From: Candidatus Woesearchaeota archaeon
GTDB taxonomy: Archaea; Nanobdellota; Nanobdellia; Woesearchaeales; GW2011-AR4
Assembly: GCA_016185945.1 (NCBI GenBank)
Contig: JACPMR010000015.1
Location: 217,543-281,542 of the forward strand
Length of the DNA: 64,000 nucleotides
Reading direction: 5' to 3'
Shown here: positions 19,955 through 60,107 of the stretch, in pieces
Layout of the letters: each line of letters opens with the position of its first letter
Numbering within the stretch: position 1 is the first letter of the stretch
The notes under the pieces: generated by a model
Told to the model about the DNA's origin: nothing
The model's input: the letters and a program-made list of their open reading frames with translations, nothing else
Databases searched by the model: none
Program-made: the position numbers and the translations under genes

Positions 19955-20773
19955 ATGATAGTTAAAGAAGAATTTTTGAGCAAACTGAGAAGGTTTTTCA
20001 GCCTCAATTTGTACGAGGTTAAAATATGGACGGCTCTGCTCAGCAGAGGGGTTTCCACAGCAGGAGAGCTTTCTGATATTGCAAATGTGCCGAGAAGCAG
20101 AAGCTACGATGTTCTCGAGTCATTGGAAAAGAAGGGCTTTGTCATAATGAAGCTTGGCAAGCCGATAAAGTACATTGCTGTTCCTCCAAAGGAGGTTGTT
20201 GAGAGAGTTAAAAAGAATGTTGAATCATATGCGAAAGAGGAAGTCAAAAAGCTTAGCGACTTGAAGAATACCGATGTTATCAATGAGCTGAGCGCATTGC
20301 ACACTCAGGGAGTTGAGCTTATCGAGCCAGCTGACTTGAGCGGTTCTTTGAGAGGAAGGCACAACTTATATAATCATCTTGAATTAACAATAAGAAATGC
20401 TGAGGAAAGCGTTACCTTGATGACAACAGCTCAGGGATTTATTAGAAAAATGGAGGGACTTAAGCCTACATTTGAAAAACTAAAGAAAAGGGGAGTGAAG
20501 ATAAGGGTTGCTGCCCCAATCACAAAAGAGGCATTGCCTGCTTTGAAAGAGATACAGGGGCTTGCAGAAATCAGGTATACTGACAATAAGGCAAGGTTCT
20601 GTGTTGTAGACAGCAAGGAGATAATCTTCATGATTCTGGACGACAATGAAGTTCATCCAACTTATGATGTTGGCATATGGGTTAACACGCCGTTCTTCGC
20701 AAATGCGCTGGAGAACTTATTTGACCTTGCGTGGAAGAACATGAAGCCGGCTGCAGAAGTTGTGAAGAGATAG
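19955..20773 (+). CDS. TrmB family transcriptional regulator (TrmBL2-like)
   Basis: LNLYEVKIW...TAGELSDIANVPRSRSYDVLESLEKKGFV winged HTH plus C-terminal PLD-like domain. Confidence 0.92.
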   Translation: MIVKEEFLSKLRRFFSLNLYEVKIWTALLSRGVSTAGELSDIANVPRSRSYDVLESLEKKGFVIMKLGKPIKYIAVPPKEVVERVKKNVESYAKEEVKKLSDLKNTDVINELSALHTQGVELIEPADLSGSLRGRHNLYNHLELTIRNAEESVTLMTTAQGFIRKMEGLKPTFEKLKKRGVKIRVAAPITKEALPALKEIQGLAEIRYTDNKARFCVVDSKEIIFMILDDNEVHPTYDVGIWVNTPFFANALENLFDLAWKNMKPAAEVVKR

Positions 20774-21099: not shown

Positions 21100-21945
21100 A
21101 TGGCAAAACAAAAATTGATTTTAAGCTTAAAGCAAAAAGCGAAAGAATTGCGCAAAGAAATTCTTGCAATAATTTACAATGCACAGTCCGGGCATCCTGG
21201 GGGCTCTTTAAGCGCAATAGATATGTTAGTTGGATTGTATTATTACAAGCTAAAAGTTGAGCCAAAAAATCCTATGTGGGAAGACAGAGATAGGTTTGTA
21301 TTGAGCAAAGGGCATTGCAGTCCTGCAATTTATGCTGTTTTGGCTGACAAGGGATATTTTCCAAAATCCGAGCTTGAAGGATACAGAAAAATCAACAGTA
21401 TGCTGCAGGGGCATCCAGAGCTAAGCATACCCGGAATAGATTTTGCAGGAGGCGCTCTTGGGCAGGGAATCTGCTTTGCGCTTGGAATTGCATTGGCGTG
21501 TAGGCTTGACAAAAGAAAATGCAATGTCTATGCAATGATTGGAGACGGAGAAGCGCAAGAAGGCGCTGTTTGGGAGGCCTCAATGGCTGCTGCCTTTTAC
21601 AAGATGGACAATTTGATTGCTGTTCTTGACAAAAACCAAGTGCAGCAAACAGGGAAAACAAAAGATATTATGGACATTGGCGATGCTGCTGCGAAATGGA
21701 AGGCATTTGGATGGAATGCTGTTGAGATCAACGGGCATGACATGGAGCAAATAGTCAAGGCATTAGATAGGGCATCTAAAATGAAAAACAAAAAGCCGAC
21801 AATGATAATTTCAAATACAATCAAAGGCAAAGGAGTTTCGTTCATGGAATTAAATCATAAGTTTCATGGAAAAGCCCCGAATGAGGAAGAATTCAAGAAG
21901 GCATTGATGGAAATAGACAAGATTAATGTTAAGACGTTTAAATAA
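21100..21945 (+). CDS. tktA: Transketolase, N-terminal (TPP-binding) subunit
   Basis: GHPGGSLS, DRFVLSKGH, LQGHP, GDGE...EG...N TPP motif. Confidence 0.95.
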   Translation: MAKQKLILSLKQKAKELRKEILAIIYNAQSGHPGGSLSAIDMLVGLYYYKLKVEPKNPMWEDRDRFVLSKGHCSPAIYAVLADKGYFPKSELEGYRKINSMLQGHPELSIPGIDFAGGALGQGICFALGIALACRLDKRKCNVYAMIGDGEAQEGAVWEASMAAAFYKMDNLIAVLDKNQVQQTGKTKDIMDIGDAAAKWKAFGWNAVEINGHDMEQIVKALDRASKMKNKKPTMIISNTIKGKGVSFMELNHKFHGKAPNEEEFKKALMEIDKINVKTFK

Positions 21946-22296: not shown

Positions 22297-23232
22297 ATGG
22301 AAAAGATAGCCACTCGAGACGGTTATGGAAGGGCATTGGTTGAGTTAGGGAAGCAAAATCCGAATGTTGTTGCTTTAGATGCTGACCTGAGCGACAGCAC
22401 AAGGAGCGAGTATTTTGCAAAACAATTCCCCGAAAGATTTTTCTCAATGGGCATTGCAGAGCAGAACATGATAGGGGCTGCTGCCGGACTGGCTTTTTCA
22501 GGCAAGATTGTATATGCAAGCACTTTTGCAATTTTCAGCGAAAGGGCTTATGAGTTCGTGAGAAATGTTGTGTCAAGGAATAAACTGAATGTAAAGATTG
22601 CTGGAAGCCATGCAGGGATTTTTACAGGGGAAGATGGGAAGTCAGCACAGGCAATTGAGGACATTGCTGCTTATCGCGCATTGCCAAACATGATTGTGCT
22701 GCAGCCCTGCGATGCGGTTGAGACAGAGAAGATTGTTTTTGCGCTTGCTGGCTATAAAGGGCCTTCTTACATGAGAATGCACAGGAATCCTGTGCCTGTG
22801 ATTCACGATGCTAATTATAGATTTGAAATTGGAAAGGCAGAAGTTTTGAGGCAGGGCAAGGATGCTGTCATTTTTGCAACAGGCACTTTGGTTCATGAGG
22901 CGTTGAAAGCAGCTGAAATTTTAAAAAATGAGGGAATTGATGTTTTTGTTGTGAATATCCACACTATAAAGCCAATTGATGAGAAATTAATAATTGATTT
23001 GGCGAAGAAGACAAATTGCGTGATTACAGCAGAGGATCATAATGTGATTGGGGGCCTAGGAAGCGCTGTTGCAGAGGTTTTAGGTGAGAATTATCCTTGC
23101 ATTATGAAAAGGATTGGATTGAAGGATATGTATGCAGAGTCAGGCAAGCCGGATGAATTGTATAAGAAATATGGCTTGGATTCACAATCGATTGCTGAGG
23201 AAGTTATTAAGTTTGTAAGTAAGAAGAGATAA
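22297..23232 (+). CDS. tktB: Transketolase, C-terminal subunit
   Basis: ATRDGYG, GIAEQNM, GEDGKSAQAIED, TIKPID, EDHNVIGGLG. Confidence 0.95.
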   Translation: MEKIATRDGYGRALVELGKQNPNVVALDADLSDSTRSEYFAKQFPERFFSMGIAEQNMIGAAAGLAFSGKIVYASTFAIFSERAYEFVRNVVSRNKLNVKIAGSHAGIFTGEDGKSAQAIEDIAAYRALPNMIVLQPCDAVETEKIVFALAGYKGPSYMRMHRNPVPVIHDANYRFEIGKAEVLRQGKDAVIFATGTLVHEALKAAEILKNEGIDVFVVNIHTIKPIDEKLIIDLAKKTNCVITAEDHNVIGGLGSAVAEVLGENYPCIMKRIGLKDMYAESGKPDELYKKYGLDSQSIAEEVIKFVSKKR

Positions 23233-24499: not shown

Positions 24500-25150
24500 A
24501 TGGATTTATTCCTTGACACAGCTTCTGTCCAAGAAGTAAGACAAGGTGCTGAGACTGGATTGATTTCGGGTGTTACTACAAATCCCAGTTTGGCTTTAAA
24601 AGCAGGCGGAGACTACAACGATGTTCTAAAAGAAATCTGCTCTATTGTAAAAGGTCCAGTCAGCGCTGAGACTGTTTCCTTGGATGCAGATGGCATGGTA
24701 AAAGAAGGTGTTGCTTTCTCCAAGATTGCAAAGAACATTGTTGTAAAAGTGCCGATGACTGTTGAGGGGATGAAAGCCTGCCAGAGATTGACGAGAAAAG
24801 ACATAAAAGTCAATGTTACACTGTGCTTTTCCCCTAATCAAGCATTATTGGCAGCAAAATCAGGCGCTTTCATTGTAAGCCCGTTTGTCGGAAGATTGGA
24901 TGATATTGGAGAAGTCGGAATGAATTTGATCAAGGACATAAGATTAATCTATAATAATTACAAATTTACAACACAGATATTAGTTGCTTCCATCAGAAAC
25001 CCTATCCATGTGCTTGAGGCAGCAAAGATAGGGGCAGACATTGCAACAATGCCTTACTCTGTATTTGAGCAGTTGTTCAAGCACTCCTTGACTGATGTCG
25101 GGATTAAGAGATTTCTGGAAGACTGGGAGAAAGTGCTGAAGAGGAAATGA
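24500..25150 (+). CDS. tal: Transaldolase (FSA/TalC family)
   Basis: [19 protein letters not shown] Schiff-base Lys, [20 protein letters not shown]. Confidence 0.93.
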
Positions 25151-25887: not shown

Positions 25888-25958
25888 TTTATAAACATAA
25901 ATATTGTAGATTCAGCATGTAATTTAATAACCTTTTTATACCATTTTCTTTAACTTTA

Positions 25959-26522
25959 CTATAACTCTTCTAAAATATTTTTTTTATTGTAATTGATTTT
26001 ATTTCTTTTAAGTATTTCTTCAAATTCAAGTGAATGCTCAATAGGAATTTTAACAACTCCACTCATTAATCTTGTTCCATTCAAAAGTTCTATAATGCCT
26101 TTTTGGTTTCTGCCGGCAAGGATATAATTAAATTTGATTTTTTGCGTATGGCTAAGTCCTTTTAAATTGTACCAGAAAATTGTGTAAGAATTAAATCCCA
26201 AGATTTGGCAGAATTTTTTATTATGGAAAATACTGAATCCCTCCAGTAAAATTCCTGTTCTTGCCAAGAACTCAGTTGAAAACAAATCTTTCAGAAGACA
26301 TTGCTGCATATCAAGATTTATATCAATTATTCTTTTTACATTATTTTTAATGTCTTGAATTATACCTAGTCTCTCGCGCAAACTTCCTTCTAGAAAGATA
26401 ACCATTATATCTATATCTCTAGAGAACATCTTGCCTTTAACAGAAGAGCCGAAAACAATGATGTCAAAAATTGGCTCTTTTTTTTCATCCTTCAAGCATT
26501 TCTTTAATTTTTCCAATGTCAT
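25959..26522 (-). CDS. Minimal nucleotidyltransferase (MNT) antitoxin with C-terminal extension
   Basis: IIVFGSSVKG...DIDIMV (GS...DxD). ATG at 26522 overlaps the HEPN 3' end. Confidence 0.8.
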   Translation of the reverse strand: MTLEKLKKCLKDEKKEPIFDIIVFGSSVKGKMFSRDIDIMVIFLEGSLRERLGIIQDIKNNVKRIIDINLDMQQCLLKDLFSTEFLARTGILLEGFSIFHNKKFCQILGFNSYTIFWYNLKGLSHTQKIKFNYILAGRNQKGIIELLNGTRLMSGVVKIPIEHSLEFEEILKRNKINYNKKNILEEL

Positions 26523-26823
26523 CTTTAAGCAACTCTGCAGATTCTTTGTCCATCTTCTTGGTGTACGAATCCTGATAAAAAGGAAAATCCCTATCAAGGA
26601 TTTTGTAGATTGGAGAATATTTCTCTTCTATAGTTCTGAATCTGTCAGAATGTGAAGATGGAATTCTTCCTTCTTTTTTTAATAAAAATAAATCACATAA
26701 AGCGACAATTGCTTTAAAGAACAGCGTTGTTGCGCTGTTATATTTTTGCTCATTAAATGCTATTAAACCTAACTGGAAATATTCCTCAAAATTATCTATC
26801 AATATTTTCGCTCTTTCATCCAT
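26485..26823 (-). CDS. HEPN domain protein (toxin partner of MNT)
   Basis: Helical 112 aa with KYNSATTLFFKA and GRIPSSH (Rx4H); adjacent to MNT. Confidence 0.75.
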   Translation of the reverse strand: MDERAKILIDNFEEYFQLGLIAFNEQKYNSATTLFFKAIVALCDLFLLKKEGRIPSSHSDRFRTIEEKYSPIYKILDRDFPFYQDSYTKKMDKESAELLKDDIGKIKEMLEG

Positions 26824-28157: not shown

Positions 28158-28209
28158 AAAACCAGTAACCTTTAAATACTACTTATTCTTACTAAACCGC
28201 TTAAATCAA

Positions 28210-28400: not shown

Positions 28401-29414
28401 ATGATTGTGGTGATGAAGAAGGGCGCAGGCGAAAAACAGCTTGCCAAGGTAATTGAAAAAATAAAGGAAAATGGGTTGAAGGCACATATCTCGAAAGGAG
28501 ATTTTGTGACAGTAATAGGGATTTTAGGAGATGAAAGCAAAGTTCCTGAAGCGCAGATAAGGGCATTGGAGGGAGTAGAAAAGCTGATGCCTGTTTTGTC
28601 TCCTTACAAGCTTGTAAGCAAGGATTTTCATCCTGAAAAGACTGTTGTGACTGTTGATGGTGTTAAAATAGGAGGCAATGAAGCTGTTGTGATGGCAGGG
28701 CCTTGCACTGTTGAAAGCAAAGAGCAGATACTTGAGACAGCAAGGGCTGTGAAGAAAGCAGGAGCAAGAATACTAAGAGGAGGCGCTTTCAAGCCAAGAA
28801 CATCTCCTTATTCTTTCCAAGGACTGGGGGAGGAAGGTTTAAAGCTGTTAAAACTTGCAAAAGAAGAAACCGGACTGCCAATCATAACAGAGGTTATGGA
28901 CACTAGAAATGTCCCATTAGTTTGCAAGTATGCTGATATTTTGCAGGTTGGAGCGAGAAACATGCAAAACTTTGATTTGCTGAAGGAAGTTGGCAAATGC
29001 AGTCATCCTGTTCTGCTGAAAAGAGGAATTTCAGCAACAATTACGGAATGGTTTATGAGCGCAGAATACATAATGGCAGAAGGCAATCATAACATCATCT
29101 TATGTGAAAGAGGGATAAGAACTTTTGAGACATACACAAGAAATACTCTTGACTTGAATGCTGTGCCTGCTGTCAAGGAATTGACACATCTACCGATTAT
29201 TGTAGATCCGAGTCATGGTACTGGGAGATACAGCTTAGTCAGCCCAATGAGCAAGGCGGCAATTGCAGCAGGCGCAGATGGATTATTAATTGAGGTTCAT
29301 CCAAGCCCTGAAAAATCAGTGAGCGACGCAGACCAGACAATAAGCACGAAAAGGTTTGAGAAATTGATGGAAGAATTAAAGTTAATAGCGCATGCAATAG
29401 GAAGGAAAATATAA
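28401..29414 (+). CDS. aroF: DAHP synthase type I-beta with N-terminal regulatory domain
   Basis: [51 protein letters not shown]; SD aggtga precedes ATG 28401. Confidence 0.95.
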
Positions 29415-29510
29415 GAAAATTGATTAGGTTGAAGACGATTAACAAATTCAATCAACAAACACGAGAGCTTCCTTTAAATAAAAGCAATATTGTAAAAATT
29501 AATCAATCCA

Positions 29511-29636
29511 GAGAGCGACTTTTGGAAGTCAAAGGAGAAGAAAGTGAACCGCTTTTACATAATGCACTTAAAGTCAAACAATATAGTGCAACAGCAATTG
29601 CGGGGCGCCCATTTTAACTAGCAGTGCTTGGGTCGC
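29511..29636 (+). repeat. Three-hairpin structured element (copy C) between aroF and aroB
   Basis: The 5' part matches 22019-22064 and the 3' part matches 6181-6257. Confidence 0.7.
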
Positions 29637-29671
29637 CTGATTGTTTTAAAAAATAGTATATTATATCAGAA

Positions 29672-30751
29672 ATGGAAACTATTAGAGTAAATTTGAAAGA
29701 AGAGATTGACAATTCTTATGTCATTTTAATAGATGAGGGGTTATTTGATAATCTGGCAAATGAGTTAAAACAAAAGCCGCTTGGAAATTATTATGCAATA
29801 ATAACTGACACTAATGTTGGGAAAGTTTACGGTAAAAAGTTGTTGGAAAATTTGCAAAGCAAAAATATCAATGCACATTTGATAACATCCCAAGCAGGAG
29901 AAAAAGGCAAAACAAGAAAGACAAAGGAAAAAATCGAGGATGAGATGCTTGAGCTCGGCTTGGGCAGAGACTCCTGCATCATTGCTCTTGGCGGCGGTGT
30001 TGTTGGCGACTTGGCGGGGTTTGTTGCTGCAACATACATGAGGGGAATTCCATACATTCAAGTTCCCACAAGCTTGCTTGCAATGGGTGACAGTTCAATA
30101 GGTGGCAAAGTTGCAGTAGATACACTGCATGCAAAGAATGTGATTGGCGCTTTCTACCAGCCGAAAAAAGTGATTATTGACTTGAATTTTCTGAGAACAT
30201 TACCAAAAAGCGAATTGGCGAATGGAATGGCTGAAGTAATCAAGCACGCTCTAATTAAAGACAAGGATTTCTTCCATTTTCTAGAAAAAAACATTGACAA
30301 GATTATGGATTTGGAGATATTAAAAAAAACAATTAAAAGGAGCTGCGAGATTAAGGCGGATATTATAATGCAAGATGAAAAGGAAAAAGGGCTTAGGAGA
30401 ATTCTCAATTATGGGCATACAATCGGGCATGCAATCGAAGCAGCATTGAGCTACAAAATAAGCCATGGAAATGCAATTGCGATTGGCATGAGCTATGCTG
30501 CAAAATTATCCGCAAAGAAGGGCTTTCTGCATGAAGGTTCTGTTATAAGGCAGAATAATCTGATGGAGTATATTGGCTTGCCGCACAGATTAAGCCATCA
30601 TAAATTGAAACCAAGAAAAATTCTGGGAAATATACAATATGACAAGAAAATCGTGGATGGAAAGATAAATTTTGTATTGTTGAATTCAATTGGAGATGCC
30701 TTTGTTTCTGATGAAATAACTTTGGACGATATTAAGCAAATATTGGAATAA
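29672..30751 (+). CDS. aroB: 3-dehydroquinate synthase
   Basis: ALGGGVVGDLAGF, RGIPYIQVPTSL, DSSIGGK, EVIKH, LNYGHTIGHAIE. Confidence 0.96.
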   Translation: METIRVNLKEEIDNSYVILIDEGLFDNLANELKQKPLGNYYAIITDTNVGKVYGKKLLENLQSKNINAHLITSQAGEKGKTRKTKEKIEDEMLELGLGRDSCIIALGGGVVGDLAGFVAATYMRGIPYIQVPTSLLAMGDSSIGGKVAVDTLHAKNVIGAFYQPKKVIIDLNFLRTLPKSELANGMAEVIKHALIKDKDFFHFLEKNIDKIMDLEILKKTIKRSCEIKADIIMQDEKEKGLRRILNYGHTIGHAIEAALSYKISHGNAIAIGMSYAAKLSAKKGFLHEGSVIRQNNLMEYIGLPHRLSHHKLKPRKILGNIQYDKKIVDGKINFVLLNSIGDAFVSDEITLDDIKQILE

Positions 30752-30758
30752 AAATAAA

Positions 30759-32234
30759 ATGATTGCTGCTGTTATAACTGAAAGAGATGAAAAAGACGCA
30801 CTTAATGCTATTAAGAAAATCAAAGACGCTGATTTGATTGAATTAAGACTGGATTATATCAAAAATTTAGATGATAAAAAATTAAAAAATCTAATCAAAA
30901 ATTGCAGAAAACCGGTTATTGCAACCTGCAGAAAGAAAAGCGAAGGTGGATTTTTTAGTGGAAGTGAAAATGAAAGAATTAATATATTAAAAAATGCTGT
31001 AAAATTAGGAGCGGATTATGTTGACATTGAATATTCTTCTGATAAAAATGTAATAAAAGATATTATAAAAAATAAAACTAAAGCAATTGTTTCCTGCCAT
31101 GATTTCAAACAAACTCCAAGCAATCTAGGAGATATTTACAATAACATAAAAAAATTAAATCCGGATTTAATCAAAATAGTCACGTATGCCAATTCTGTAA
31201 CAGATAACTTCAAGATTTTTGATTTGATAAAAACCGCAAACGAAGAAAACAAAAAAATAATTGCATTCTGCATGGGCTCTTATGGGCAGTTCAGCAGGAT
31301 TTTAAGCGCGATTCTTGGTTCACAAATAACATATAGCTCGATAGAAGAAGGTAAGGAATCAGCAGATTGTCAATTAACGATGAATGAAATGGTAAATTAT
31401 TACAGAATTAAAAAATTAAACAAAAATACAAAAGTTGTTGGATTGATTGGAAATCCAGTAGAGCATTCTTGGTCACATATAATACATAATTCTGCATTTG
31501 ACAAATTAAACATTAATGCTGTTTATTTAAAGTTTCAAGTGGATAAATTGAAAAAATTTATTGAGTATATGAAACCCCTGAATCTTATTGGATTTAGCGT
31601 CACAATCCCGCACAAAGTCGAGATTATGATGTATATTGATGGATTAGATAAGCAGGCAAAGGGGATTGGTGCTGTAAATACTCTTGTTGTTAAAAATGGT
31701 AAATTAATCGGATATAATACAGATTGCCCAGGAGCTATAAGAGCATTGAAGCAAAAAACAGAATTAAAAAACAAGAATGCTGTTGTTTTAGGAGCAGGCG
31801 GGGCAGCAAGGGCAATGGTTTATGGCTTAATAGAGAATAAATCAAATGTTACAATATTGAACAGGACTGTTGAAAAGGCAAAACTGCTTGCTGATTATTT
31901 TAAATGTGATTATGGCTCTTTGGATGATTTAAAAGATATTGATTATGATATTCTAATCAACACAACATCTGTTGGGATGTATCCAAAAGCTAATGAATTA
32001 CCTATTGGCAAAAATTCAATAAAAAATAACAAAATTGTTTTTGATATGGTTTTCAATCCCTTCAAGACAAAACTTCTTGTTGAGGCTGAAAAAAGAAACT
32101 GCACAATAATTAATGGTTTTGAGATGCTGATTTATGGAGCTTTGCTGCAGTTTAAATTATGGACTGGAAAAGATGCTCCGGAACAACTAATGAGGCAAAA
32201 AGTTATGGAATTTTTGAAAAATGCTAGCCATTAA
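30759..32234 (+). CDS. aroDE: Fused type I 3-dehydroquinase and shikimate dehydrogenase
   Basis: IELRLD, IVSCHDF and IKIV (AroD), then GNPVEHSWS, SVTIPHK, GAVNT, NTD and GAGGAA (AroE). Confidence 0.92.
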   Translation: MIAAVITERDEKDALNAIKKIKDADLIELRLDYIKNLDDKKLKNLIKNCRKPVIATCRKKSEGGFFSGSENERINILKNAVKLGADYVDIEYSSDKNVIKDIIKNKTKAIVSCHDFKQTPSNLGDIYNNIKKLNPDLIKIVTYANSVTDNFKIFDLIKTANEENKKIIAFCMGSYGQFSRILSAILGSQITYSSIEEGKESADCQLTMNEMVNYYRIKKLNKNTKVVGLIGNPVEHSWSHIIHNSAFDKLNINAVYLKFQVDKLKKFIEYMKPLNLIGFSVTIPHKVEIMMYIDGLDKQAKGIGAVNTLVVKNGKLIGYNTDCPGAIRALKQKTELKNKNAVVLGAGGAARAMVYGLIENKSNVTILNRTVEKAKLLADYFKCDYGSLDDLKDIDYDILINTTSVGMYPKANELPIGKNSIKNNKIVFDMVFNPFKTKLLVEAEKRNCTIINGFEMLIYGALLQFKLWTGKDAPEQLMRQKVMEFLKNASH

Positions 32235-33477
32235 AACAAAAAAATACATTAATGCAGTAATTGAAGCTCCGCCATCAAAAAGCTATACACAAAGGGCTTT
32301 GATAGTTGCAGCTTTGGCTAATGGAAAGTCAATAATAAAAAATCCTTTATTTAGTGATGACACTAATTACATGGTTTCTGCGCTGAAGCAATTCGGAGTT
32401 GAAATCAAGAAAAAAGGGAAAAATCTTGTTGTTTATGGAATAAATGGAAGGTTAAAAACCCCTGATAAGAATGTCTTTGTAGGAAATGCAGGCACTGCGA
32501 TGAGGTTTCTTGCTACATTTGCATCGCTTGCTGATGGTGATACTATAATAACAGGAGACAAGCGAATGCAGCAAAGACCCATACAGGACTTGCTTTATGC
32601 ACTGCAGCAGATTGGGGTGAACAGCAAAAGCAGTGATGGGTTTCCTCCTGTGAAGATTTTTGGCGGCTCTTTTAACGGAGGCAATATAAGGTTAAAGGGA
32701 GATTTAAGCAGCCAGTACTTGACATCAATTTTATTATGCGCTCCTTATGCAAAAAATAGTATTACAATGAACATAACGGAAAATCTAACTTCAAAGCCAT
32801 ATGTCGATATCACGCTTGATGTGATGAAAAAATTTGGAGTTGATGTCAAAAATATCAACTACAAAAAATTCATGATAAAAAATAATCAGAAATACAAGGC
32901 AAGAAACTATGCAATTGAAGGGGATGCTTCCAGCGCAAGCTATTTCTTTGCAGCAGCTGCAATTGCAAAGGGAAAGGTAATGGTAAAGAATATAAATCCA
33001 GCCTCAAAACAAGGTGATATTAAGTTTGTTGATATATTGAAGAAGATGGGGTGTGGCGTGAAGAAAGGCAAGAACTACATACAAATAGAAGGATATAGCT
33101 TGAAAAGCGTTGATGTTGACATGAATGAAATGCCCGATGTCGTACCTACGCTTGCTGTCACAAGCGTTTTTGCTGAAGGTACTACAACTATAAGAGATGT
33201 TCCTAATTTAAGATTAAAGGAGACTGATAGATTAAAGGCATTGGCCTTTGAATTAAGAAAGATTGGCGCTAATGTAGAAGAAATGCAGGACGGCTTGAAA
33301 ATAAAAAGAAGGAGGGTGCAGAAAGCGATAATTGAAACTTACAATGATCATAGAATGTCTATGAGCTTTGCAGTTGCTGGATTGGGAATAAATGGTATAA
33401 GGATAAAAAATCCTGCTTGTGTTAAAAAGTCATTTCCTGATTTTTGGGAAAAATTCAATGAGCTGTATAAAAAATGA
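32221..33477 (+). CDS. aroA: EPSP synthase
   Basis: PPSKSYTQR, GNAGTAMR, SSQY, EGDASSA, KETDR, DHRMSM. Confidence 0.96.
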   Translation: MLAIKTKKYINAVIEAPPSKSYTQRALIVAALANGKSIIKNPLFSDDTNYMVSALKQFGVEIKKKGKNLVVYGINGRLKTPDKNVFVGNAGTAMRFLATFASLADGDTIITGDKRMQQRPIQDLLYALQQIGVNSKSSDGFPPVKIFGGSFNGGNIRLKGDLSSQYLTSILLCAPYAKNSITMNITENLTSKPYVDITLDVMKKFGVDVKNINYKKFMIKNNQKYKARNYAIEGDASSASYFFAAAAIAKGKVMVKNINPASKQGDIKFVDILKKMGCGVKKGKNYIQIEGYSLKSVDVDMNEMPDVVPTLAVTSVFAEGTTTIRDVPNLRLKETDRLKALAFELRKIGANVEEMQDGLKIKRRRVQKAIIETYNDHRMSMSFAVAGLGINGIRIKNPACVKKSFPDFWEKFNELYKK

Positions 33478-33989
33478 ATATTGCTCTTATCGGCTTTAGG
33501 GGGGCTGGAAAGACAACTATTGCAAAATTGCTTTCAAGAAAATTGGGCAAAAAATTGATTTCAACAGATGGGGAAATTGAAAAAAGGACGAGAATGAGCA
33601 TTGCGAAGTTTGTTAAAAAATACGGCTGGGACAAATTCAGGGAAGTTGAATCAGATGTGATAGAATATATAAGTGATTTTGATGATTGCGTTTTTGACAC
33701 TGGCGGCGGCATAGTTATGAGAAATGAAAATGTAATTAATTTAAAGAAAAATGGGTTGGTGGTCCTGCTGACAGCAGATATAAAGACAACCACAAACAGG
33801 CTGAAGGCAGGCAAAGGCAGGCCTGCATTGACAAAAAAAGGAAATTTTCTTGAGGAAATAAAGGATGTTCTGAAAGAAAGAGAGGAAAGATACAAGAGGG
33901 CTGCTGATTACACAATCGATACTTCGAGATTAAAGCCAGAAGAGGCATGCGACTTGATAATGCATTATGTTCAGATGGAGATGCAGTAA
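33474..33989 (+). CDS. aroK: Shikimate kinase (bacterial AroK type)
   Basis: GFRGAGKTT, STD, FREVE, TGGGIV, RP...R; not the archaeal GHMP-type enzyme. Confidence 0.93.
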   Translation: MNIALIGFRGAGKTTIAKLLSRKLGKKLISTDGEIEKRTRMSIAKFVKKYGWDKFREVESDVIEYISDFDDCVFDTGGGIVMRNENVINLKKNGLVVLLTADIKTTTNRLKAGKGRPALTKKGNFLEEIKDVLKEREERYKRAADYTIDTSRLKPEEACDLIMHYVQMEMQ

Positions 33990-33990
33990 A

Positions 33991-35070
33991 ATGAATTCAT
34001 TCGGAACCTTGCTCAGGATAACAACATGGGGGGAAAGCCATGGCAAGGCAATTGGAGTTGTTGTAGATGGATGTCCTGCAGGGCTTGAGCTTAATGAAGA
34101 AGATGTGCAACAAGAGCTTGACAAAAGAGCGCCTGGGCAGAGCGAAGTAATGAGTCCAAGAAAAGAAGCTGACAAGGTAGAGATTCTTTCAGGAGTTTTT
34201 GAAGGCAAGACGACCGGAATGCCAATCTCAATGACTATCTACAACAAGGATGCTGATTCCTCAAAATATGAGAAAATAAAGCACTTGCTAAGGCCAGGGC
34301 ATGCTGATTTTACTTACCAGATTAAATACAAGCATCGAGATTACAGAGGCGGTGGCAGAAGCTCTGCTAGGGAAACAGCTGCAAGGGTTGCAGCAGGAGC
34401 AATTGCAAAGAAATTATTGGCAAAATATGAAATTAAAATAATCGCTTATGTAAAAGAAATTGCTGGAATAAAGGCTAATAAGATTAATTACAATGAAATT
34501 TACAAAAATAATGTAAGATGTCCTGACAAGACTGCTGCAAAGAAAATGGAAAAGGTAATTTTGAAAGCAAAAAATGAAGGTGATTCTGTAGGGGGCATAT
34601 GCGAGATTGTTGCATTGAACGTGCCTGCTGGACTTGGCAAGCCAATCTACAACAAGCTGGAATCGGATTTGGGCTCTGCAATTCTTGGCATTAATGCTGT
34701 AAAGGGGGTTGAATTTGGAGCTGGCTTTGGATTAGCTAATATGAAGGGCAGCCAATCAAATGATGAGTTTATATTAAAAAACAATAAAATTGTTACAAAA
34801 ACAAACAATCATGGAGGAATTTTGGGAGGAATATCAACAGGAATGCCTATTGTAATGCGGGCAGTTGTGAAGCCGGCATCCAGCATCTTAAAGAAACAAA
34901 AAACGATAAACTACAAGACAATGAAGCAGGAAACAATATCTGTTGAAGGAAGGCATGATCCTGCAACTATAGTGAGATTCCCGCCAATTGCAGAGGCAAT
35001 GACAGCTATTGTGCTTGCAGACCACATGCTTATGGCTGGCAAAATAAATCCTGATACATTATTGAAGTGA
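33991..35070 (+). CDS. aroC: Chorismate synthase
   Basis: GESHG, RPGHAD, GGGRSSARET, NNHGGILGGISTG, GRHDP. Confidence 0.96.
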   Translation: MNSFGTLLRITTWGESHGKAIGVVVDGCPAGLELNEEDVQQELDKRAPGQSEVMSPRKEADKVEILSGVFEGKTTGMPISMTIYNKDADSSKYEKIKHLLRPGHADFTYQIKYKHRDYRGGGRSSARETAARVAAGAIAKKLLAKYEIKIIAYVKEIAGIKANKINYNEIYKNNVRCPDKTAAKKMEKVILKAKNEGDSVGGICEIVALNVPAGLGKPIYNKLESDLGSAILGINAVKGVEFGAGFGLANMKGSQSNDEFILKNNKIVTKTNNHGGILGGISTGMPIVMRAVVKPASSILKKQKTINYKTMKQETISVEGRHDPATIVRFPPIAEAMTAIVLADHMLMAGKINPDTLLK

Positions 35071-35906
35071 GTTCTATGGTGAAAGTCGGCATTATTGGAG
35101 GAACAGGGCAAATTGGACAGTTTTTCAGGAAAATTTTTGAAAAAAATAATTGTGAAGTTTTGGTTTCATCAAGGACAACAAAATTAAAGCCAGAAGATTG
35201 CGCAAGGCAAAGCGACATAGTATTGGTTTCAGTGCCGATTGAGGTTACTGTTGATGTAATCAAAAGACTCTCTCCTTATATCAACAAAAATTCTTTGCTG
35301 ATGGACACAACATCAATAAAAAAAGAGCCAGTTGATGCTATGCTTCGCTATTCAAAATGTGAAGTAATTGGCATGCATCCGGTTTTCGGGCCTGGGGTTG
35401 AGTCATTAAAGAATCAAACAATTGTTTTGTGCCCAGCAAGAACAAAAAAATGGCTTAAATGGATTGTTGATATTTTTGAGAAAGATGGTGCAAAAATCAA
35501 GATAACAACTCCGGAAAAGCATGATGAGATGATGTCTGTAATACAAGGGTTAAACCATTTCAGCACTTTAAGCGTGGCGCATGCAATGAAAAATTTAGGA
35601 GTAAGCTTGAAAGAAAGCTTGGAATACACTAGCCCTATTTACAAGTTGAGGATGATTATGGTCGGAAGAATTTTGAATCAGGATGCAAACTTGTATGCAA
35701 GCATTGAGATAAAAAATTCTGAAAATAAAAAAATTTTGAAGATTTATGAAAAATCATCAAAAAAACTGCAAAGAATTATCGAGACAAAAAACACAAAAGA
35801 GTTTGTAAAATACTTCAATGAATGTGCTGAGTTTTTTGGCGGCTTCAAGAAAGAGGCTGAGGAGGTAAGCAATTATCTTATTAAGCAAATGGTTGATATG
35901 AAATGA
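35067..35906 (+). CDS. tyrA: Prephenate dehydrogenase
   Basis: GGTGQIG, DTTSIK, GMHPVFGP, HDEMMSVIQGLNH. Confidence 0.93.
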   Translation: MSSMVKVGIIGGTGQIGQFFRKIFEKNNCEVLVSSRTTKLKPEDCARQSDIVLVSVPIEVTVDVIKRLSPYINKNSLLMDTTSIKKEPVDAMLRYSKCEVIGMHPVFGPGVESLKNQTIVLCPARTKKWLKWIVDIFEKDGAKIKITTPEKHDEMMSVIQGLNHFSTLSVAHAMKNLGVSLKESLEYTSPIYKLRMIMVGRILNQDANLYASIEIKNSENKKILKIYEKSSKKLQRIIETKNTKEFVKYFNECAEFFGGFKKEAEEVSNYLIKQMVDMK

Positions 35907-36712
35907 AAATAGCGACTTTAGGCCCGGAAGGAACTTTCAGCCATGAAGCTGTGCTCAGATACAACAGCAAAGCAGGCATTTTGTTTACAGAGACTGTGAT
36001 GGATGCTTTTGAGGAAGTTGCTGACGGCAAGGCAGATTTTGGGATTGTGCCGATTGAGAATTCAATTGCAGGCACTGTTGGGCAGACTCTTGACTATTTG
36101 ATGAAGTTTGAGCTGAAAATTAAAGCTGAAGAGTTGGTTCCGATAAGCCATAATCTTTCTGGGTTTGGGAAGATAAGTGACATTAAAGTGCTGTATCTGC
36201 ATCCGCAAACCTATGAGCAATGCGAGTTATTTATTAAAGAAAATCTTCCAAAAGCTGAGATAATACAGACATCAAGCAACGGCAAGTCAGCAGAGATAAT
36301 TGCAAAATCAAAAGACAAGGCAAAGGCATCAATTATTCCGAAAATTGCAGCTGATATTTACAAGTTGAAGATACTTAAAAAAGATGTGCAGGACAACAGA
36401 TTCAATATAACAAGGTTTTTTGTAATAGGGCATGAAGACAGCAAGAAAACCGGGTATGACAGGACAAGCATTGCTGTATATCCGCAAGTTGACAGGCCTG
36501 GATTATTGCATGAAATGCTTGGCGAGTTTGCAAATAGAAAGATAAATTTGACCAAAATTGAGTCAAGGCCTTCAAAAGGAAAGCTTGGCGATTATATTTT
36601 TTACATTGATTTTCAGGGCCATAAATCAGAGAAGCATGTTGCAGAAGCATTAAAGAAATTAGAAGAGACTGCTTTTGTGACAGTGCTTGGGAGTTATCCG
36701 AGGAAATACTAA
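35903..36712 (+). CDS. pheA: Prephenate dehydratase with ACT domain
   Basis: LGPEGTFS, PIENS, NITRF, LTKIESRP. Confidence 0.94.
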   Translation: MKIATLGPEGTFSHEAVLRYNSKAGILFTETVMDAFEEVADGKADFGIVPIENSIAGTVGQTLDYLMKFELKIKAEELVPISHNLSGFGKISDIKVLYLHPQTYEQCELFIKENLPKAEIIQTSSNGKSAEIIAKSKDKAKASIIPKIAADIYKLKILKKDVQDNRFNITRFFVIGHEDSKKTGYDRTSIAVYPQVDRPGLLHEMLGEFANRKINLTKIESRPSKGKLGDYIFYIDFQGHKSEKHVAEALKKLEETAFVTVLGSYPRKY

Positions 36713-36713
36713 C

Positions 36714-38234
36714 ATGGATATCAAAAAATTAGCAGAAAGCCTTAATCCATTTGAAAGAAAGGTATTGAAAGTTTTGGATAATTTCAGCTCTTTTAATGAC
36801 ATTATGAAAGTAACTGGATTGAAGGATGTTGAAGTCATGCGGGCATTGCAATGGCTGCAGAATAAGAATGTTGTAAAGCTGAAAGAAGAACAGAAAGAGC
36901 TTGTTTATCTTGATGAAAATGGGCAGAAGTATTTGAAGTATGGCTTGCCTGAAAGAAGGTTTTTAGAAGTGATTGAAAAGCCTGCAAGAATAAGCGATGT
37001 TGCCAAAAAGACAGGGTTAAGCAATGATGAGATAACAATATCGCTTGGCGCTTTAAAATCAAAAGCAGCCATTGACATAACAAAAGAAAAGGAATTAATT
37101 ATTTCAATAACAGAGCAGGGAAAAAATATTCTAAAGCGGGGATTGCTTGAAGAGCAGTTCCTAAAAGAGCATTTTCCAAAAGAGGCTGCAAGCTTAAATG
37201 AAGAGGAAAAGTTTGTTTTTGAAAGCTTAAGAAAAAGAAAGAAAATAATCAAAGTTGAAAGAGCAAAGGTTATCAGCGCAGAGATTACAGAAATTGGAAA
37301 AAAATTATTTAAGGAAAAGATTGAAGAGGATTTGATAGAAAGGGTGACTCCTAGTTTAATCAAGACTGGCTCTTGGAAAGGAAAAAAATTCAGAAGATTT
37401 GATGTAAAGATCAATGTCCCTCCCATATTTGCAGGAAGAAAACAGCATTACAGAAAATTTCTTGAAGAAGTGAGGCAGAAATTTGTTGCTCTTGGCTTTA
37501 AGGAGATGGACGGCCCAATAATTGAGAGCGATTTCTGGGATATGGATGCTTTGTTCATGCCCCAGTTTCATTCTGCAAGGGACATACACCAAGGTTATTA
37601 CATAAAAGAGCCGAAGTATTCCAAAGATATCCCTGAAAATGTCTTGAAAAATGTAAAGGCAGCGCATGAAAATGGTTTTGATACAGGCTCGAAGGGCTGG
37701 AGATATGATTTTGACGTCAAAAGGACTCAAAGGCATATTTTAAGGACACATGACACTTCAATTTCAGCAAGGACACTTGCTTCCAAGGAATTGAAAATTC
37801 CAGGCAAGTATTTCCAGATTTCAAGATGCTTCAGGTATGATGTGGTTGATGCAACACATTTGCCTGACTTCAACCAAGTTGGAGGGTTTGTCATTGAAGA
37901 AGGCATTCATTTCGGGCATTTGAAAGCGCTACTAAGAATGTTTGCAGAGGAGTTTGCGGATGCCGAAGAAGTGAGGATAAAGCCGAGCTATTTTCCATTC
38001 ACAGAGCCAAGCGCTGAGCTGCAGGCAAAGCACCCGGAGTTTGGATGGATTGAGTTGGCGGGCTCTGGAATTTTCAGGCCTGAATTGGTTAAGCCCCTTG
38101 TTGGAAGAGAAGTGCCTGTTATTGCATGGGGTGTTGGCTTGGACAGACTGGCAATGTTCAAGCTTGGCATTAAGGATATAAGGCAATTGTTCAGCCATGA
38201 CTTGAAAGTGTTGAGGAATGCAAGGGCAATATGA
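36714..38234 (+). CDS. pheS: Phenylalanine-tRNA ligase alpha subunit
   Basis: FWDMDALF..QFHSARD, LRTH, FRYD...H..F.Q, FPFTEPS, G.GIFRPE, GLDRLAM. Confidence 0.96.
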   Translation: MDIKKLAESLNPFERKVLKVLDNFSSFNDIMKVTGLKDVEVMRALQWLQNKNVVKLKEEQKELVYLDENGQKYLKYGLPERRFLEVIEKPARISDVAKKTGLSNDEITISLGALKSKAAIDITKEKELIISITEQGKNILKRGLLEEQFLKEHFPKEAASLNEEEKFVFESLRKRKKIIKVERAKVISAEITEIGKKLFKEKIEEDLIERVTPSLIKTGSWKGKKFRRFDVKINVPPIFAGRKQHYRKFLEEVRQKFVALGFKEMDGPIIESDFWDMDALFMPQFHSARDIHQGYYIKEPKYSKDIPENVLKNVKAAHENGFDTGSKGWRYDFDVKRTQRHILRTHDTSISARTLASKELKIPGKYFQISRCFRYDVVDATHLPDFNQVGGFVIEEGIHFGHLKALLRMFAEEFADAEEVRIKPSYFPFTEPSAELQAKHPEFGWIELAGSGIFRPELVKPLVGREVPVIAWGVGLDRLAMFKLGIKDIRQLFSHDLKVLRNARAI

Positions 38235-38419
38235 AAGGGAAAAAACAATTCATAAAGATATGCCCGAAATGTGGGAATATAGACATTCCAGTAAAGACTG
38301 GATTTATCGAAATGCTTGCCCCAGTGCCGGAAAAATGCAGGAAATGCAGCTACACTGGGTTGTTTCCTGAGATAGATATAAGCGAGGTTGAAGAATTTAG
38401 GAGAGATTTGAAAAGATAA
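38231..38419 (+). CDS. Small zinc-ribbon protein
   Basis: CPKC and CRKC pairs; tightly packed between pheS and pheT. Confidence 0.65.
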   Translation: MKGKKQFIKICPKCGNIDIPVKTGFIEMLAPVPEKCRKCSYTGLFPEIDISEVEEFRRDLKR

Positions 38420-38420
38420 A

Positions 38421-40079
38421 ATGCCTACAATAACCTTTTCACTGAAAGATTTGCAGCATTTGGTCGGAAAGAAATTAAGCATTGAAGGAGTTAACGAGCT
38501 TGCTCACTATGGGAAAGGTGACTTGGAAGGCTATGATAAGGAAGCTGATGAAGTAAAAATAGATTTTGGCGACACTAATTTACCTTATCTATGGAGTGTT
38601 GAGGGTTTTGCAAGGCTGATTAAGGGAATTTTGGGATTGCAGAAAGGAGTTCCTGAGATAAAAGTGCATAAAAGAGATTATCAAGTTGTGGTCGATAAAT
38701 CTGTTATCAAATATCGTCCTTATATTGCATGCTTTGCTGCAAAGGGGAAGAGAGTTGACGATTATTTGATAAAGCAGATTGTGCAGTTGCAGGAGAAGTT
38801 TTGCGAGGGCTATGGCAGGAGAAGGCAGAAAGTTTCTATTGGTTTATATTCCTACAAAAGGTTAAAATTTCCTGTGCATTACAAGGCAGTTGAGCCATTG
38901 TCGGTTGAATTTGTACCGCTTGAGTTTAAAGCCAAGATGAATTTGAAAGAAATATTGGCAGAGCACCCCAAAGGCAAAGACTATTCATTGGTTCTTGAGG
39001 GCTTTGACAAATACCCCTTGCTTATGGACGACAAGAATGAGGTGATGAGCTTAGTGCCGATTATAAACTCTAACTTTACAGGCAAGATTGAGATTGGGGA
39101 TGAAAACATATTTTTTGAAGCAACAGGCACTGATGAAGAGGCTGTTAATCTTGCAGCAGTCATATTTGCATACGCGCTATTTGAGAGGGGGTTTGAGGTT
39201 TTTTCTGTTGAAATCAAGTATCCAAACAAAAAAGTTACGAGTCCTGATTTAAGCATTGAGACAGTTGCAATAAAAAACGAGCAGATAAAACATTTGTTTG
39301 GATTGGAATTAAAAGAAAGTGAAGTGAAGCACTTGCTTGAGAAAGCCCAGTTTGAATTTGGTGATTGGAAAGTTAAAGTGCCTCCTTACAGGAAGGATAT
39401 ATTGCATCCTTATGACATAATTGAAGACATAGGCATTATGTATGGATTTGATAAAACTCCAGAAGCTCCTTTGAAAACTTATACAATCGGCTCGGCATTA
39501 AGGATAAATGATTTCATTGACAAAGTAAGGGAGATAGTTATTGGATTGGGCTATCAGGAAGTTATGAGCGCGGTATTGACAAATAAGGAATTCTTGTACA
39601 AAAAAATGAATATTGAGGACGTTGGGACAATTGAAATAGAGGATTTCATGTCAGAAACTTATTCTGTTGTGAGAAGCTGGGTTTTGCCGAATATTATGGA
39701 AGTTTTTTCCAAGAACAAGCATGTAGAGTTTCCGCAGAAAATTTTTGAGGAAGGCTTGATTAATATCAGGAAGGGTAATTATATCCTAGAGCATAGCAGG
39801 ATTGCAATTGCAAGCTCCCATGACGAAGCAAACTACACAGAAATGAGGCAGGTGCTTGATTTAATAATGAAATGCTTTGGATTAAGCTATGACATTGAAG
39901 AAGCGGAGCATGGTTCTTTCATTGAAGGCAGATGCGCAAGGGCGATTGTAAAAGGAAAGAAGATTGCTTATTTGGGGGAAATAAATCCTGAAGTTTTACA
40001 GAATTGGGGGCTTGAAATGCCAGTTGCTGCTTTGGAGCTGAATTTGACGGAGTTGTTTGAAGTAATTGAAAAGAAATGA
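38421..40079 (+). CDS. pheT: Phenylalanine-tRNA ligase beta subunit (archaeal)
   Basis: DTNLPYLWSVEG, RKDILHPYDIIEDI, IFEEG, ELNL. Confidence 0.95.
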   Translation: MPTITFSLKDLQHLVGKKLSIEGVNELAHYGKGDLEGYDKEADEVKIDFGDTNLPYLWSVEGFARLIKGILGLQKGVPEIKVHKRDYQVVVDKSVIKYRPYIACFAAKGKRVDDYLIKQIVQLQEKFCEGYGRRRQKVSIGLYSYKRLKFPVHYKAVEPLSVEFVPLEFKAKMNLKEILAEHPKGKDYSLVLEGFDKYPLLMDDKNEVMSLVPIINSNFTGKIEIGDENIFFEATGTDEEAVNLAAVIFAYALFERGFEVFSVEIKYPNKKVTSPDLSIETVAIKNEQIKHLFGLELKESEVKHLLEKAQFEFGDWKVKVPPYRKDILHPYDIIEDIGIMYGFDKTPEAPLKTYTIGSALRINDFIDKVREIVIGLGYQEVMSAVLTNKEFLYKKMNIEDVGTIEIEDFMSETYSVVRSWVLPNIMEVFSKNKHVEFPQKIFEEGLINIRKGNYILEHSRIAIASSHDEANYTEMRQVLDLIMKCFGLSYDIEEAEHGSFIEGRCARAIVKGKKIAYLGEINPEVLQNWGLEMPVAALELNLTELFEVIEKK

Positions 40080-58593: not shown

Positions 58594-58594
58594 C

Positions 58595-60097: not shown

Positions 60098-60107
60098 AAT
60101 CAATAAA

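Follow-up and report, generated by a model that had tools for sequence, protein, structure and literature searches.

The 64-kb window analysed here (64,000 nucleotides of contig JACPMR010000015.1, from a Candidatus Woesearchaeota archaeon) carries an array of eleven genes, aroF to pheT, at positions 28401-40079 of its forward strand, in which enzymes of the shikimate pathway and of the terminal phenylalanine (Phe) and tyrosine (Tyr) branches are encoded directly ahead of the two subunits of phenylalanyl-tRNA synthetase (PheRS). We propose, at a probability of roughly six in ten, that this array is a Woesearchaeal aromatic ‘supraoperon’: old, modular and often lost, under layered Phe/Tyr control, and ending in the only PheRS of the cell. 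Old Woesearchaeal ancestry with repeated loss is favoured because the linkage of aro genes to pheST is shared between families, its chromosomal site is fixed, several of its gene trees lead to neighbouring families, and its GC content is ordinary.

Synthesising our observations, we suggest a model for how the locus might work. A split transketolase and a transaldolase would supply erythrose-4-phosphate, from which AroF, AroB, AroD-E, AroK, AroA and AroC would yield chorismate; a separate AroQ would turn this into prephenate, which PheA would convert to phenylpyruvate and TyrA to 4-hydroxyphenylpyruvate, with one of three aminotransferases (AspAT-like, DapL-like or HisC-HAD) completing Phe and Tyr, and the last genes of the array providing what appears to be the cell's sole PheRS. 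The enzymes themselves would be subject to feedback via the AroF FXD and PheA ACT domains, and expression would be sensed by a Phe/Tyr-rich leader, with a hairpin over its stop codon, lying between a promoter box and aroF. Both the array and its linkage to pheST would be old in the Woesearchaeales, always next to the SecY/ribosomal-protein cluster, the copy in this genus having been largely inherited from a common ancestor with families f55, f10, f36 and f70, through a history of exchangeable modules and many losses. (Here and below, G labels denote sampled genomes, G000 being this one; L labels, fetched loci; and f labels, families, f1 being that of the host.)

Organisation of the array and completeness of the pathway

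Genes were identified from a listing of open reading frames (ORFs) and from Pfam and NCBIfam scans, with bit scores read against curated cut-offs; starts were set by comparison with relatives and by inspection of ribosome-binding sites. All eleven genes that a preliminary description of the window had placed here were recovered, on the same strand and in the order given, as were the enzyme types that it had named, i.e. DAHP synthase I-beta, AroB and a P-loop AroK (Table 1). From aroB through to pheT each junction lies between -14 and +7 nt (a 14-nt overlap to a 7-nt gap), with the starts of aroF (an ATG after GGTGAG), aroC, tyrA and pheS now fixed. The six non-kinase activities that lead from DAHP synthase to chorismate synthase all score above curated family cut-offs. 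AroK does not reach those of the NCBIfam equivalogs (150 vs 204 bits); the signatures of shikimate kinase are a Walker A motif, an STD/DTD motif, a GGG motif and a lid Arg-Pro, all of which are visible in its alignment. PheRS is of the archaeal (alpha2 beta2) type, with single-copy PheS and PheT both above the archaeal equivalog cut-offs and just one match to pheS in the genome. The Zn-ribbon ORF that sits between them overlaps pheS by 4 nt and has no family match in library scans; homologues occupy the same place in 12 loci of the genus, but are lacking in others (e.g. G014 and G024).

Table 1. Positions in the window of the aromatic array and associated features, with the reduced loci of related genomes in the last line
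Feature	Position	Strand	Basis or remark
TrmB-family regulator	19955..20773	+	PF01978, 68.6 bits
Chorismate mutase AroQ, monofunctional, 84 aa	20845..21099	+	PF01817, 59.7 bits vs cut-off 27
Transketolase, N-terminal half	21100..21945	+	PF00456, 196 bits; start one base past mutase stop
Transketolase, C-terminal half	22297..23232	+	PF02779 153 bits, PF02780 122 bits
Transaldolase / fructose-6-phosphate aldolase	24500..25150	+	PF00923, 206 bits; upstream of locus in relatives too
TATA/BRE-like box CCTTTAAATA	28169..28178	+	32 nt before leader ATG; equivalents in relatives
Leader peptide ORF, MKKLENLMANIGFAFYRLFSGFKYFFFYFKY then stop, 31 codons	28210..28305	+	Conserved frame; ends ...GFKYFFFYFKY
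RNA hairpin spanning leader stop codon	28304..28341	+	RNAalifold, 11 sequences
aroF: DAHP synthase I-beta with N-terminal ferredoxin-like FXD (allosteric) domain	28401..29414	+	NF006421, 535 bits vs cut-off 335
Repeat cassette (insert), 257 nt, TATA-like box at 29471-29480	29415..29671		Modules recur on many contigs of genome
aroB: 3-dehydroquinate synthase	29672..30751	+	TIGR01357, 396 bits vs 305
aroD-aroE fusion: type I dehydroquinase + shikimate dehydrogenase	30759..32234	+	TIGR01093, 177 vs 139; TIGR00507, 279 vs 200
aroA: EPSP synthase	32221..33477	+	TIGR01356, 467 bits vs 287
aroK: P-loop shikimate kinase	33474..33989	+	PF01202, 145 bits; motifs intact in alignment
aroC: chorismate synthase	33991..35070	+	TIGR00033, 474 bits vs 212
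tyrA: prephenate (or arogenate) dehydrogenase, PDH_N + PDH_C	35076..35906	+	PF02153, PF20463
pheA: prephenate dehydratase (PDT) with C-terminal ACT domain	35903..36712	+	NF008865, 280 bits vs 219
pheS: archaeal PheRS alpha subunit, sequence ‘type A’	36714..38234	+	NF003210, 540 bits vs 350
Four-cysteine Zn-ribbon ORF, 62 aa, between pheS and pheT	38231..38419	+	CxxC...CxxC pattern
pheT: archaeal PheRS beta subunit	38421..40079	+	TIGR00471, 502 bits vs 283
Reduced loci L091, L092, L094, L096, L097, L105-L108			Genomes G012, G020, G009, G005, G016, G021, G019, G023, G007

The preliminary description had also seen here a complete pathway in one operon. This stands as far as the enzymes that it listed, all of which are present, but the operon holds no chorismate mutase; since AroF, TyrA and PheA carry no such domain in Pfam or NCBIfam scans, it stops, by itself, short of prephenate. 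The AroQ encoded 7.3 kb upstream of aroF is the single AroQ-type mutase in a genome-wide search; its ORF lies below the cut-offs of the NCBIfam chorismate mutase models, and mutases of the AroH type are absent from all 51 genomes searched. With the mutase, transketolase, TrmB-family regulator and transaldolase all upstream of the array, the functional unit therefore extends over approximately 19955-40079. The TrmB-family protein is a candidate dedicated aromatic regulator: homologues that begin almost identically (N-terminus MIVKEEFLSKLR or MIVKDEFLSKLR) stand ahead of transketolase or aro genes in G153, G033, G376, G111, G305, G249 and G277. With these homologues (loci L064, L072, L073, L075, L081, L082 and L084), such a regulator is found at the head of transketolase/aromatic clusters in at least six other families. 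The aromatic unit is divided, between the transaldolase and the DRG GTPase gene, by two minus-strand genes (25153-26597) for an Nmad3-domain protein and a nucleotidyltransferase of the Pol-beta type, which may form a toxin-antitoxin-like pair; transketolase lies on one side of them and aroF on the other.

As previously noted, the operon includes no aminotransferase. The search for an aromatic one elsewhere in the genome, which the preliminary description had recommended, returned three class-I/II enzymes, AspAT-like (contig C1), DapL-like (C3) and HisC-HAD (C8); their specificity is not readable from sequence, and any of the three could complete Phe and Tyr. The HisC-HAD fusion, which joins a histidinol-phosphate aminotransferase to a HAD-type hydrolase, is a 572-aa frame (G000 C8:139957-141672); several congeners, and one further family, have counterparts of 565-589 aa.

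Tryptophan (Trp) is a different matter. No chorismate-binding enzyme such as TrpE was found in this genome, and every trp ORF in the operons of two congeners (L163, G001:C54; L165, G014:C42) is without a counterpart in it; for these reasons the archaeon would make Phe and Tyr but probably not Trp. The flanks of the congeners' trp operon are present on G000 C4, at about 11.4-26.9 kb, with 11 kb between them.

The gap between aroF and aroB is occupied by a mosaic of dispersed repeats that is missing in all eight relatives compared; in relatives, aroF directly adjoins or overlaps aroB. A 65-aa ORF in the gap was considered as a hidden chorismate mutase, and rejected because the gap is a repeat cassette.

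A fixed chromosomal site in seven families

The contig that holds the window is 311 kb long, in a genome of 1.5 Mb (24 contigs, 90.7% complete). Relatives with the same synteny and 82-95% identity in AroC have been deposited as groundwater metagenome-assembled genomes (MAGs) of Candidatus Woesearchaeota or Nanoarchaeota, the sister MAGs coming from sites in Northern California, and SecY is 82-89% identical within the genus. That the genome belongs to the DPANN archaea, as the preliminary description had assumed, is supported by these close syntenic relatives and by a ribosomal-protein tree, which groups it with the Woesearchaeota; the objection that the description had itself foreseen, of a genome from outside DPANN, therefore falls away. 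An artefact of assembly or binning, whereby a bacterial contig or a chimeric join came to lie beside archaeal genes, is a general risk with MAGs, and that is all there is to recommend it; the operon is surrounded, inside its contig, by genes of archaeal kind (DRG GTPase, archaeal PheRS, SecY, the ribosomal-protein cluster and Cdc6), and the same arrangement recurs in more than ten independently assembled genomes, so that we find this explanation barely credible.

Chorismate synthase was found in 26 of 400 high-quality, evenly sampled genomes of the phylum in addition to this one (27/401), distributed over 23 of 280 genera and all but one in the same order. The pathway is indeed rare in the phylum, as previously supposed, and most Woesearchaeota MAGs have been reported to lack it (PMC10936187). 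Gene maps of about 100 fetched loci, made by phmmer searches with the proteins of the window as queries, show aro genes linked to pheST in seven families of Woesearchaeota, each time at the one site next to SecY. The aro genes are followed by tyrA-pheA-pheS-pheT in the host genus, in G153 and G277 (f55), G033 (f10), G249 (f70), G288 (f73), and G111 and G305 (f36); in G376 (f83) the same array ends tyrA-pheS, with pheA a few kb upstream. Beyond pheT, the order KOW protein, EMC3/YidC-like protein, SecY is constant, with or without aro genes. In a species tree built from SecY and 19 ribosomal proteins (4016 columns), f1 (this genus together with four aro-less genera) shares one clade with f36, f55, f10 and f70, with a support of 100.

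These observations bear directly upon the origin put forward in the preliminary description, namely that a bacterial shikimate and Phe/Tyr operon was acquired horizontally, fairly recently and whole, and was inserted upstream of native pheST. Such an event would account for a pathway so seldom met in the survey and missing from four sister genera. It does not readily account for the same gene order and pheST linkage in six other families, nor for the composition of the locus, where 2-kb windows along the operon have a GC content of 0.33-0.39 and the contigs one of 0.345-0.381; no tRNA gene was found in the 64-kb window either.

Gene trees, modularity and the question of bacterial ancestry

Outside the genus, the nearest AroF, AroB, TyrA and PheA (singly and concatenated) are those of f36, f55, f10 and f70, its neighbours in the species tree, plus f83. 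Along with the shared linkage and ordinary composition, this tells against a recent or single bacterial insertion. Neither do DAHP synthase I-beta and AroB serve as the bacterial markers for which they had been taken: the DAHP synthase core aligns about equally well with archaeal and bacterial enzymes (341 bits for Pyrococcus, 338 for Aeropyrum and 328 for the catalytic domain alone of T. maritima; 389 for the full-length Thermotoga enzyme with its FXD domain). Also against such an insertion, AroC is 60-63% identical to bacterial and archaeal sequences alike, and two related operons hold the archaeal 3-dehydroquinate (DHQ) synthase II in the slot that aroF-aroB fill here.

A bacterial link is possible for two components. 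AroK is a P-loop enzyme, in a setting where no GHMP shikimate kinase (TIGR01920) rises above its cut-off in 51 related genomes; the relatives recognised in the PDB comprise enzymes of bacteria, eukaryotic AROM and a single designed protein, and of ten top clusters looked up after a search of 1.8 billion representatives, one carries an organism label (‘bacterium’). For the AroD-E fusion, the nearest named non-DPANN relatives belong to anammox Planctomycetes (45-48% identity), which cluster tightly together in the tree, amid the fusions of Woesearchaeota, the exact position of their clade being weakly supported. The same two-domain fusion is known from Planctomycetes, Acidobacteria and some methanogens, in a survey that does not list Woesearchaeota as carriers (PMC11237513). 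Ancient inter-domain exchange of such single parts, in one direction or the other, is thus plausible from the sequences, and bacterial ancestry for them possible; the wholesale and recent insertion of a bacterial operon we regard as quite improbable.

That the parts can be exchanged is evident elsewhere. A DHQ synthase II occupies the aroF-aroB slot in G249:C1:236300-237286 (L072) and G277:C26:14691-15677 (L084), preceded by a 268-274-aa ORF that we presume to be an ADH synthase; of the 401 genomes, those two alone have the DHQ synthase II family (PF01959), and this one does not. The arrangement resembles non-orthologous displacement inside one operon. The clusters of f55 and f10 (L081 in G153, L082 in G033 and L084 in G277) lack aroK; a genome-wide search for a P-loop shikimate kinase, made for G033 alone among the three, gave none, and no GHMP-type kinase scored above cut-off in any of them. 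The shikimate kinase step thus has no recognisable gene in these three aro-pheST clusters. In relatives the AroD-E fusion has also grown, to AroK-AroD-E and to an AroA-AroK-AroD-E of about 1090 aa.

The larger fusion characterises a second, divergent cluster that is found elsewhere in the genomes of four congeners (L095, G009:C13; L102, G017:C11; L093, G020:C22, where the fusion is cut to 764 aa by the contig end; and L104, G006:C108), with a leader of its own that ends ...FYFWQ. AroF, AroB, TyrA and PheA of this second cluster (from G009 and G017, where all four are complete) group with the distant family f37 (support 98/95), in a clear case of whole-cluster transfer within the order. In G009 and G020 a chorismate mutase domain opens a 345-355-aa frame.

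A Phe/Tyr-rich leader ahead of the array

In the 213 nt that precede the longest frame of aroF, we identified a short ORF, with a promoter-like box before it and a hairpin that opens at its stop codon (Table 1). The box belongs to a class (YNTTTAAATA) with six members in the window, five of which lie upstream of gene starts, and the sixth inside the aroF-aroB insert. Eight of the last ten codons of the leader specify Phe or Tyr; genome-wide, a tail with at least eight such codons in the last ten occurs in just 4 of 78,599 frames. The leader is conserved in 16 relatives, eight with the full cluster and eight with a reduced locus, and the eight full-cluster relatives share the peptide IGFAFYRLFSSF[KR]YFFFYF.... 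Across the 17 sequences, of 24 codons, 23 vary at the third position, 15 at the first and 13 at the second, with 810 synonymous and 967 non-synonymous differences in pairwise comparison. In the hairpin (11 sequences), G-U substitutions leave the pairing of the stem intact, and changes at its top pairs compensate for one another.

Leaders of other families, and that of the second cluster type, are unrelated in sequence and end in runs of Phe and Tyr; those of several clusters with trpE nearby include a Trp codon. In the related families, the order of genes is TrmB regulator, leader (where found, in G153 and G249), transketolase halves, and then aroF or DHQ synthase II. Searches of Rfam gave no match over the window at gathering thresholds, and none over the leader, aroF and the gap at relaxed thresholds.

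The preliminary description had imagined synthesis and charging placed under one Phe/Tyr sensor, and here it has fared well: a candidate Phe/Tyr-sensing leader heads the array, and is kept with pheST in reduced relatives (see below). The conserved ORF is plausibly that one sensor; cotranscription of the array and an effect of the leader upon its expression we infer from the sequence. We also put forward, tentatively and in the belief that it is rather less probable than its converse, that a single ribosome-read Phe/Tyr leader governs both aromatic synthesis and an essential PheRS in an archaeon. If true, this would be an archaeal counterpart of the pheM-pheST attenuation of E. coli, together with a natural deletion series for leader-peptide control in Archaea; our search of the literature found no published case of archaeal leader-peptide attenuation.

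Reduced loci within the genus

Nine congeners keep, downstream of DRG, only an altered aroK (here aroK′), pheS and pheT, with or without the Zn-ribbon ORF, and in eight of the nine the leader still stands in front. Seven of these species have neither chorismate synthase nor chorismate mutase, and tblastn detects no remnant of aroF, aroB, aroD-E, aroA, aroC, tyrA or pheA at the reduced loci with a score better than E = 0.3. In the reduced leaders, the last ten codons show a weak trend, with Tyr falling from about 2.6 to 1.5 and Phe unchanged at 4.4-5.0. Because such species retain only leader-aroK′-pheS-pheT, the loci suggest that PheRS is a genuine, perhaps even the primary, client of the leader; persistence of the leader before pheST once the aro genes have gone is the best available evidence that it serves PheRS too.

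The AroK′ proteins nest within the full-cluster AroK copies, on longer branches. The lid Arg-Pro is gone from all nine, the GGG motif and C-terminal Arg from most, and in two species the Walker A motif is degenerate. Since these residues of the shikimate site are lost or changed, yet the ratio of non-synonymous to synonymous substitution (dN/dS) stays at 0.05-0.09 in the closest pairs, the protein has been kept, though probably not as a shikimate kinase, and its sequence suggests that it has taken on a new function.

Mapped onto the ribosomal-protein tree, the full and reduced states require at least three changes among eight species of the genus; the aro site behaves as a recombining presence/absence polymorphism.

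Replacement of PheRS in situ

The pheST genes had previously been described as native and archaeal. Archaeal they are, and they lie at their conserved place beside SecY, but the sequence type to which they belong is at odds with the ribosomal-protein tree. Identity of PheS is 44-48% with genera in the same family, and 56-62% with aro-carrying genomes of several other families; SecY ranks these relationships in the opposite sense, at 73-79% identity to the same-family genera. A tree of PheS and PheT resolves two deep clades, A and B, each with a support of 100/100. Type B, to which the sister genera without aro belong, follows the species tree, whereas type A unites this genus with f10, f70, f55, f73, f20 and f25; forcing f1 to be monophyletic costs 836 units of log-likelihood, and is rejected by the approximately unbiased (AU) test (p = 2e-6). 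Because the ranks of PheS and SecY identity oppose one another, and the AU test rejects monophyly of f1, we take pheST to have been replaced in situ at least once in this lineage, with co-transfer of aro genes possible but not required. The two types are scattered over families, and even into another order (f91), against the ribosomal-protein tree. From this conflict of trees, it would seem that the essential PheRS has been replaced repeatedly among DPANN lineages.

A more radical possibility is that the array and pheST were exchanged together: an ancestor of the family without aro genes and with a type-B PheRS would have given rise to this genus by regaining aro genes and type-A pheST, en bloc, from another Woesearchaeon, with homologous recombination between the conserved flanking genes (TAL/DRG and, at the other end, KOW/EMC3/SecY) as the means. 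The identities, clades and AU result just described would all be expected, as would the changes of state at the locus and the precedent of the second cluster, transferred whole into this genus. There is an association too, type A being present in 52 of the 400 sampled genomes and chorismate synthase in 10 of these 52 against 16 of the other 348 (odds ratio 4.9, p = 6e-4, in a count that ignores shared ancestry). However, the genomes with the closest type-A PheS (G025, G109, G040 and G043) have no chorismate synthase, and type B also adjoins aro genes (G111, G305 and G376), on which grounds we rejected the notion that type-A PheRS travels strictly with aro. Moreover, the nearest relatives of the aro genes (f55, f10, f36 and f83) differ from those of PheST (f25, f73 and f20), and therefore no single donor fits. 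Replacement en bloc is, in our judgement, unlikely.

Points that weigh against the proposal

The old, modular supraoperon that we favour has its own difficulties. Four other genera of f1 have neither chorismate synthase nor chorismate mutase, and carry pheS-pheT beside SecY or KOW with no aro genes there; if descent was ‘vertical’, the pathway must therefore have been lost two or more times among them. The per-gene phylogenies called for in the preliminary description agree with such descent for AroF, AroB, TyrA and PheA, which group with neighbouring Woesearchaeal families, but AroA, AroK and AroC of the genus have their closest kin in f83 and f25 rather than in f55 or f10, and PheST conflicts with the species tree; with nearest families that differ in this way between the two sets of aromatic enzymes, the cluster is therefore a mosaic. 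When database matches are added, the AroC tree becomes a polytomy of Nitrospinota, Chloroflexota, ANME-type archaea and several Woesearchaeal groups, and the deep nodes of both AroC and AroD-E lack resolution, with bacteria and archaea mixed.

The layer of control assigned to the leader is likewise open to objection. The hairpin is missing in 5 of the 17 leaders, and the U tract after it is weak; the leader region as a whole folds no better than shuffled sequences (z = -0.8), and the one hairpin over the stop codon is all that was seen there, with no competing antiterminator structure defined. In this genome, the promoter-like box within the insert may also furnish aroB-pheT with a promoter that is independent of the leader.

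Comparison with known systems

In E. coli, pheM-pheST and pheL-pheA are controlled by leader-peptide attenuators. As in those systems, a short ORF with a run of Phe codons (here Phe and Tyr) lies between promoter and genes, with a hairpin just after it, and in the reduced relatives the leader stands directly before pheST, much like pheM. It differs in its archaeal host, in that one leader would serve both biosynthesis and PheRS, and in that no antiterminator/terminator pair or strong U tract was seen here. The pheL attenuator has been reviewed (PMC3082878).

The array joins common-pathway and terminal-branch genes in one long unit, as does the aromatic supraoperon of Bacillus subtilis (aroF-aroB-aroH-trpEDCFBA-hisC-tyrA-aroE), which, unlike ours, holds trp genes and an aminotransferase, has no aminoacyl-tRNA synthetase, and is controlled by TRAP rather than by a leader peptide. 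In the Thermococcales the shikimate kinase is of the GHMP type and pheST lies outside the aro cluster; the halves of transketolase are clustered with the aro genes there also. The aro operon of these archaea has the regulator Tar (TK0271) at or inside the cluster (PMC6737238, which is silent on transketolase). An archaeal aro cluster with a regulator gene alongside is common to both, although the regulator here is of the TrmB family, and is likened to Tar by its placement.

For AroF, the closest parallel is the DAHP synthase of Thermotoga maritima, whose FXD domain binds Tyr and Phe. Residues 1-337 align over their full length, FXD domain included, with structures 1RZM and 3PG9, which we take to be those of the T. 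maritima enzyme; this likeness is known from sequence, and the catalytic core is about equally similar to 1ZCO and 1VS1, presumably unregulated archaeal enzymes.

Other features of the window

Towards its far end (57385-63617), the window encodes Cdc6/Orc1, a protein resembling the small subunit of DNA polymerase (DNA_pol_E_B and phosphoesterase domains) and then a 1176-aa ORF. The GC skew changes sign near 56-58 kb, and a replication origin therefore probably lies close to there.

Implications

DPANN archaea are usually described as depending on a host for their amino acids; here, a defined group of Woesearchaeota appears able to make Phe and Tyr, and the locus shows this ability being kept, swapped and lost at one chromosomal site. 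With the sole PheRS placed at the end of a biosynthetic array, behind a Phe/Tyr leader, the supply of one amino acid would be coupled to its charging in a manner for which we found no earlier description in an archaeon. The genus, moreover, offers three comparisons (the full cluster; the leader with aroK′ and pheST only; and the foreign second cluster) through which leader-peptide control and gene loss may be approached.

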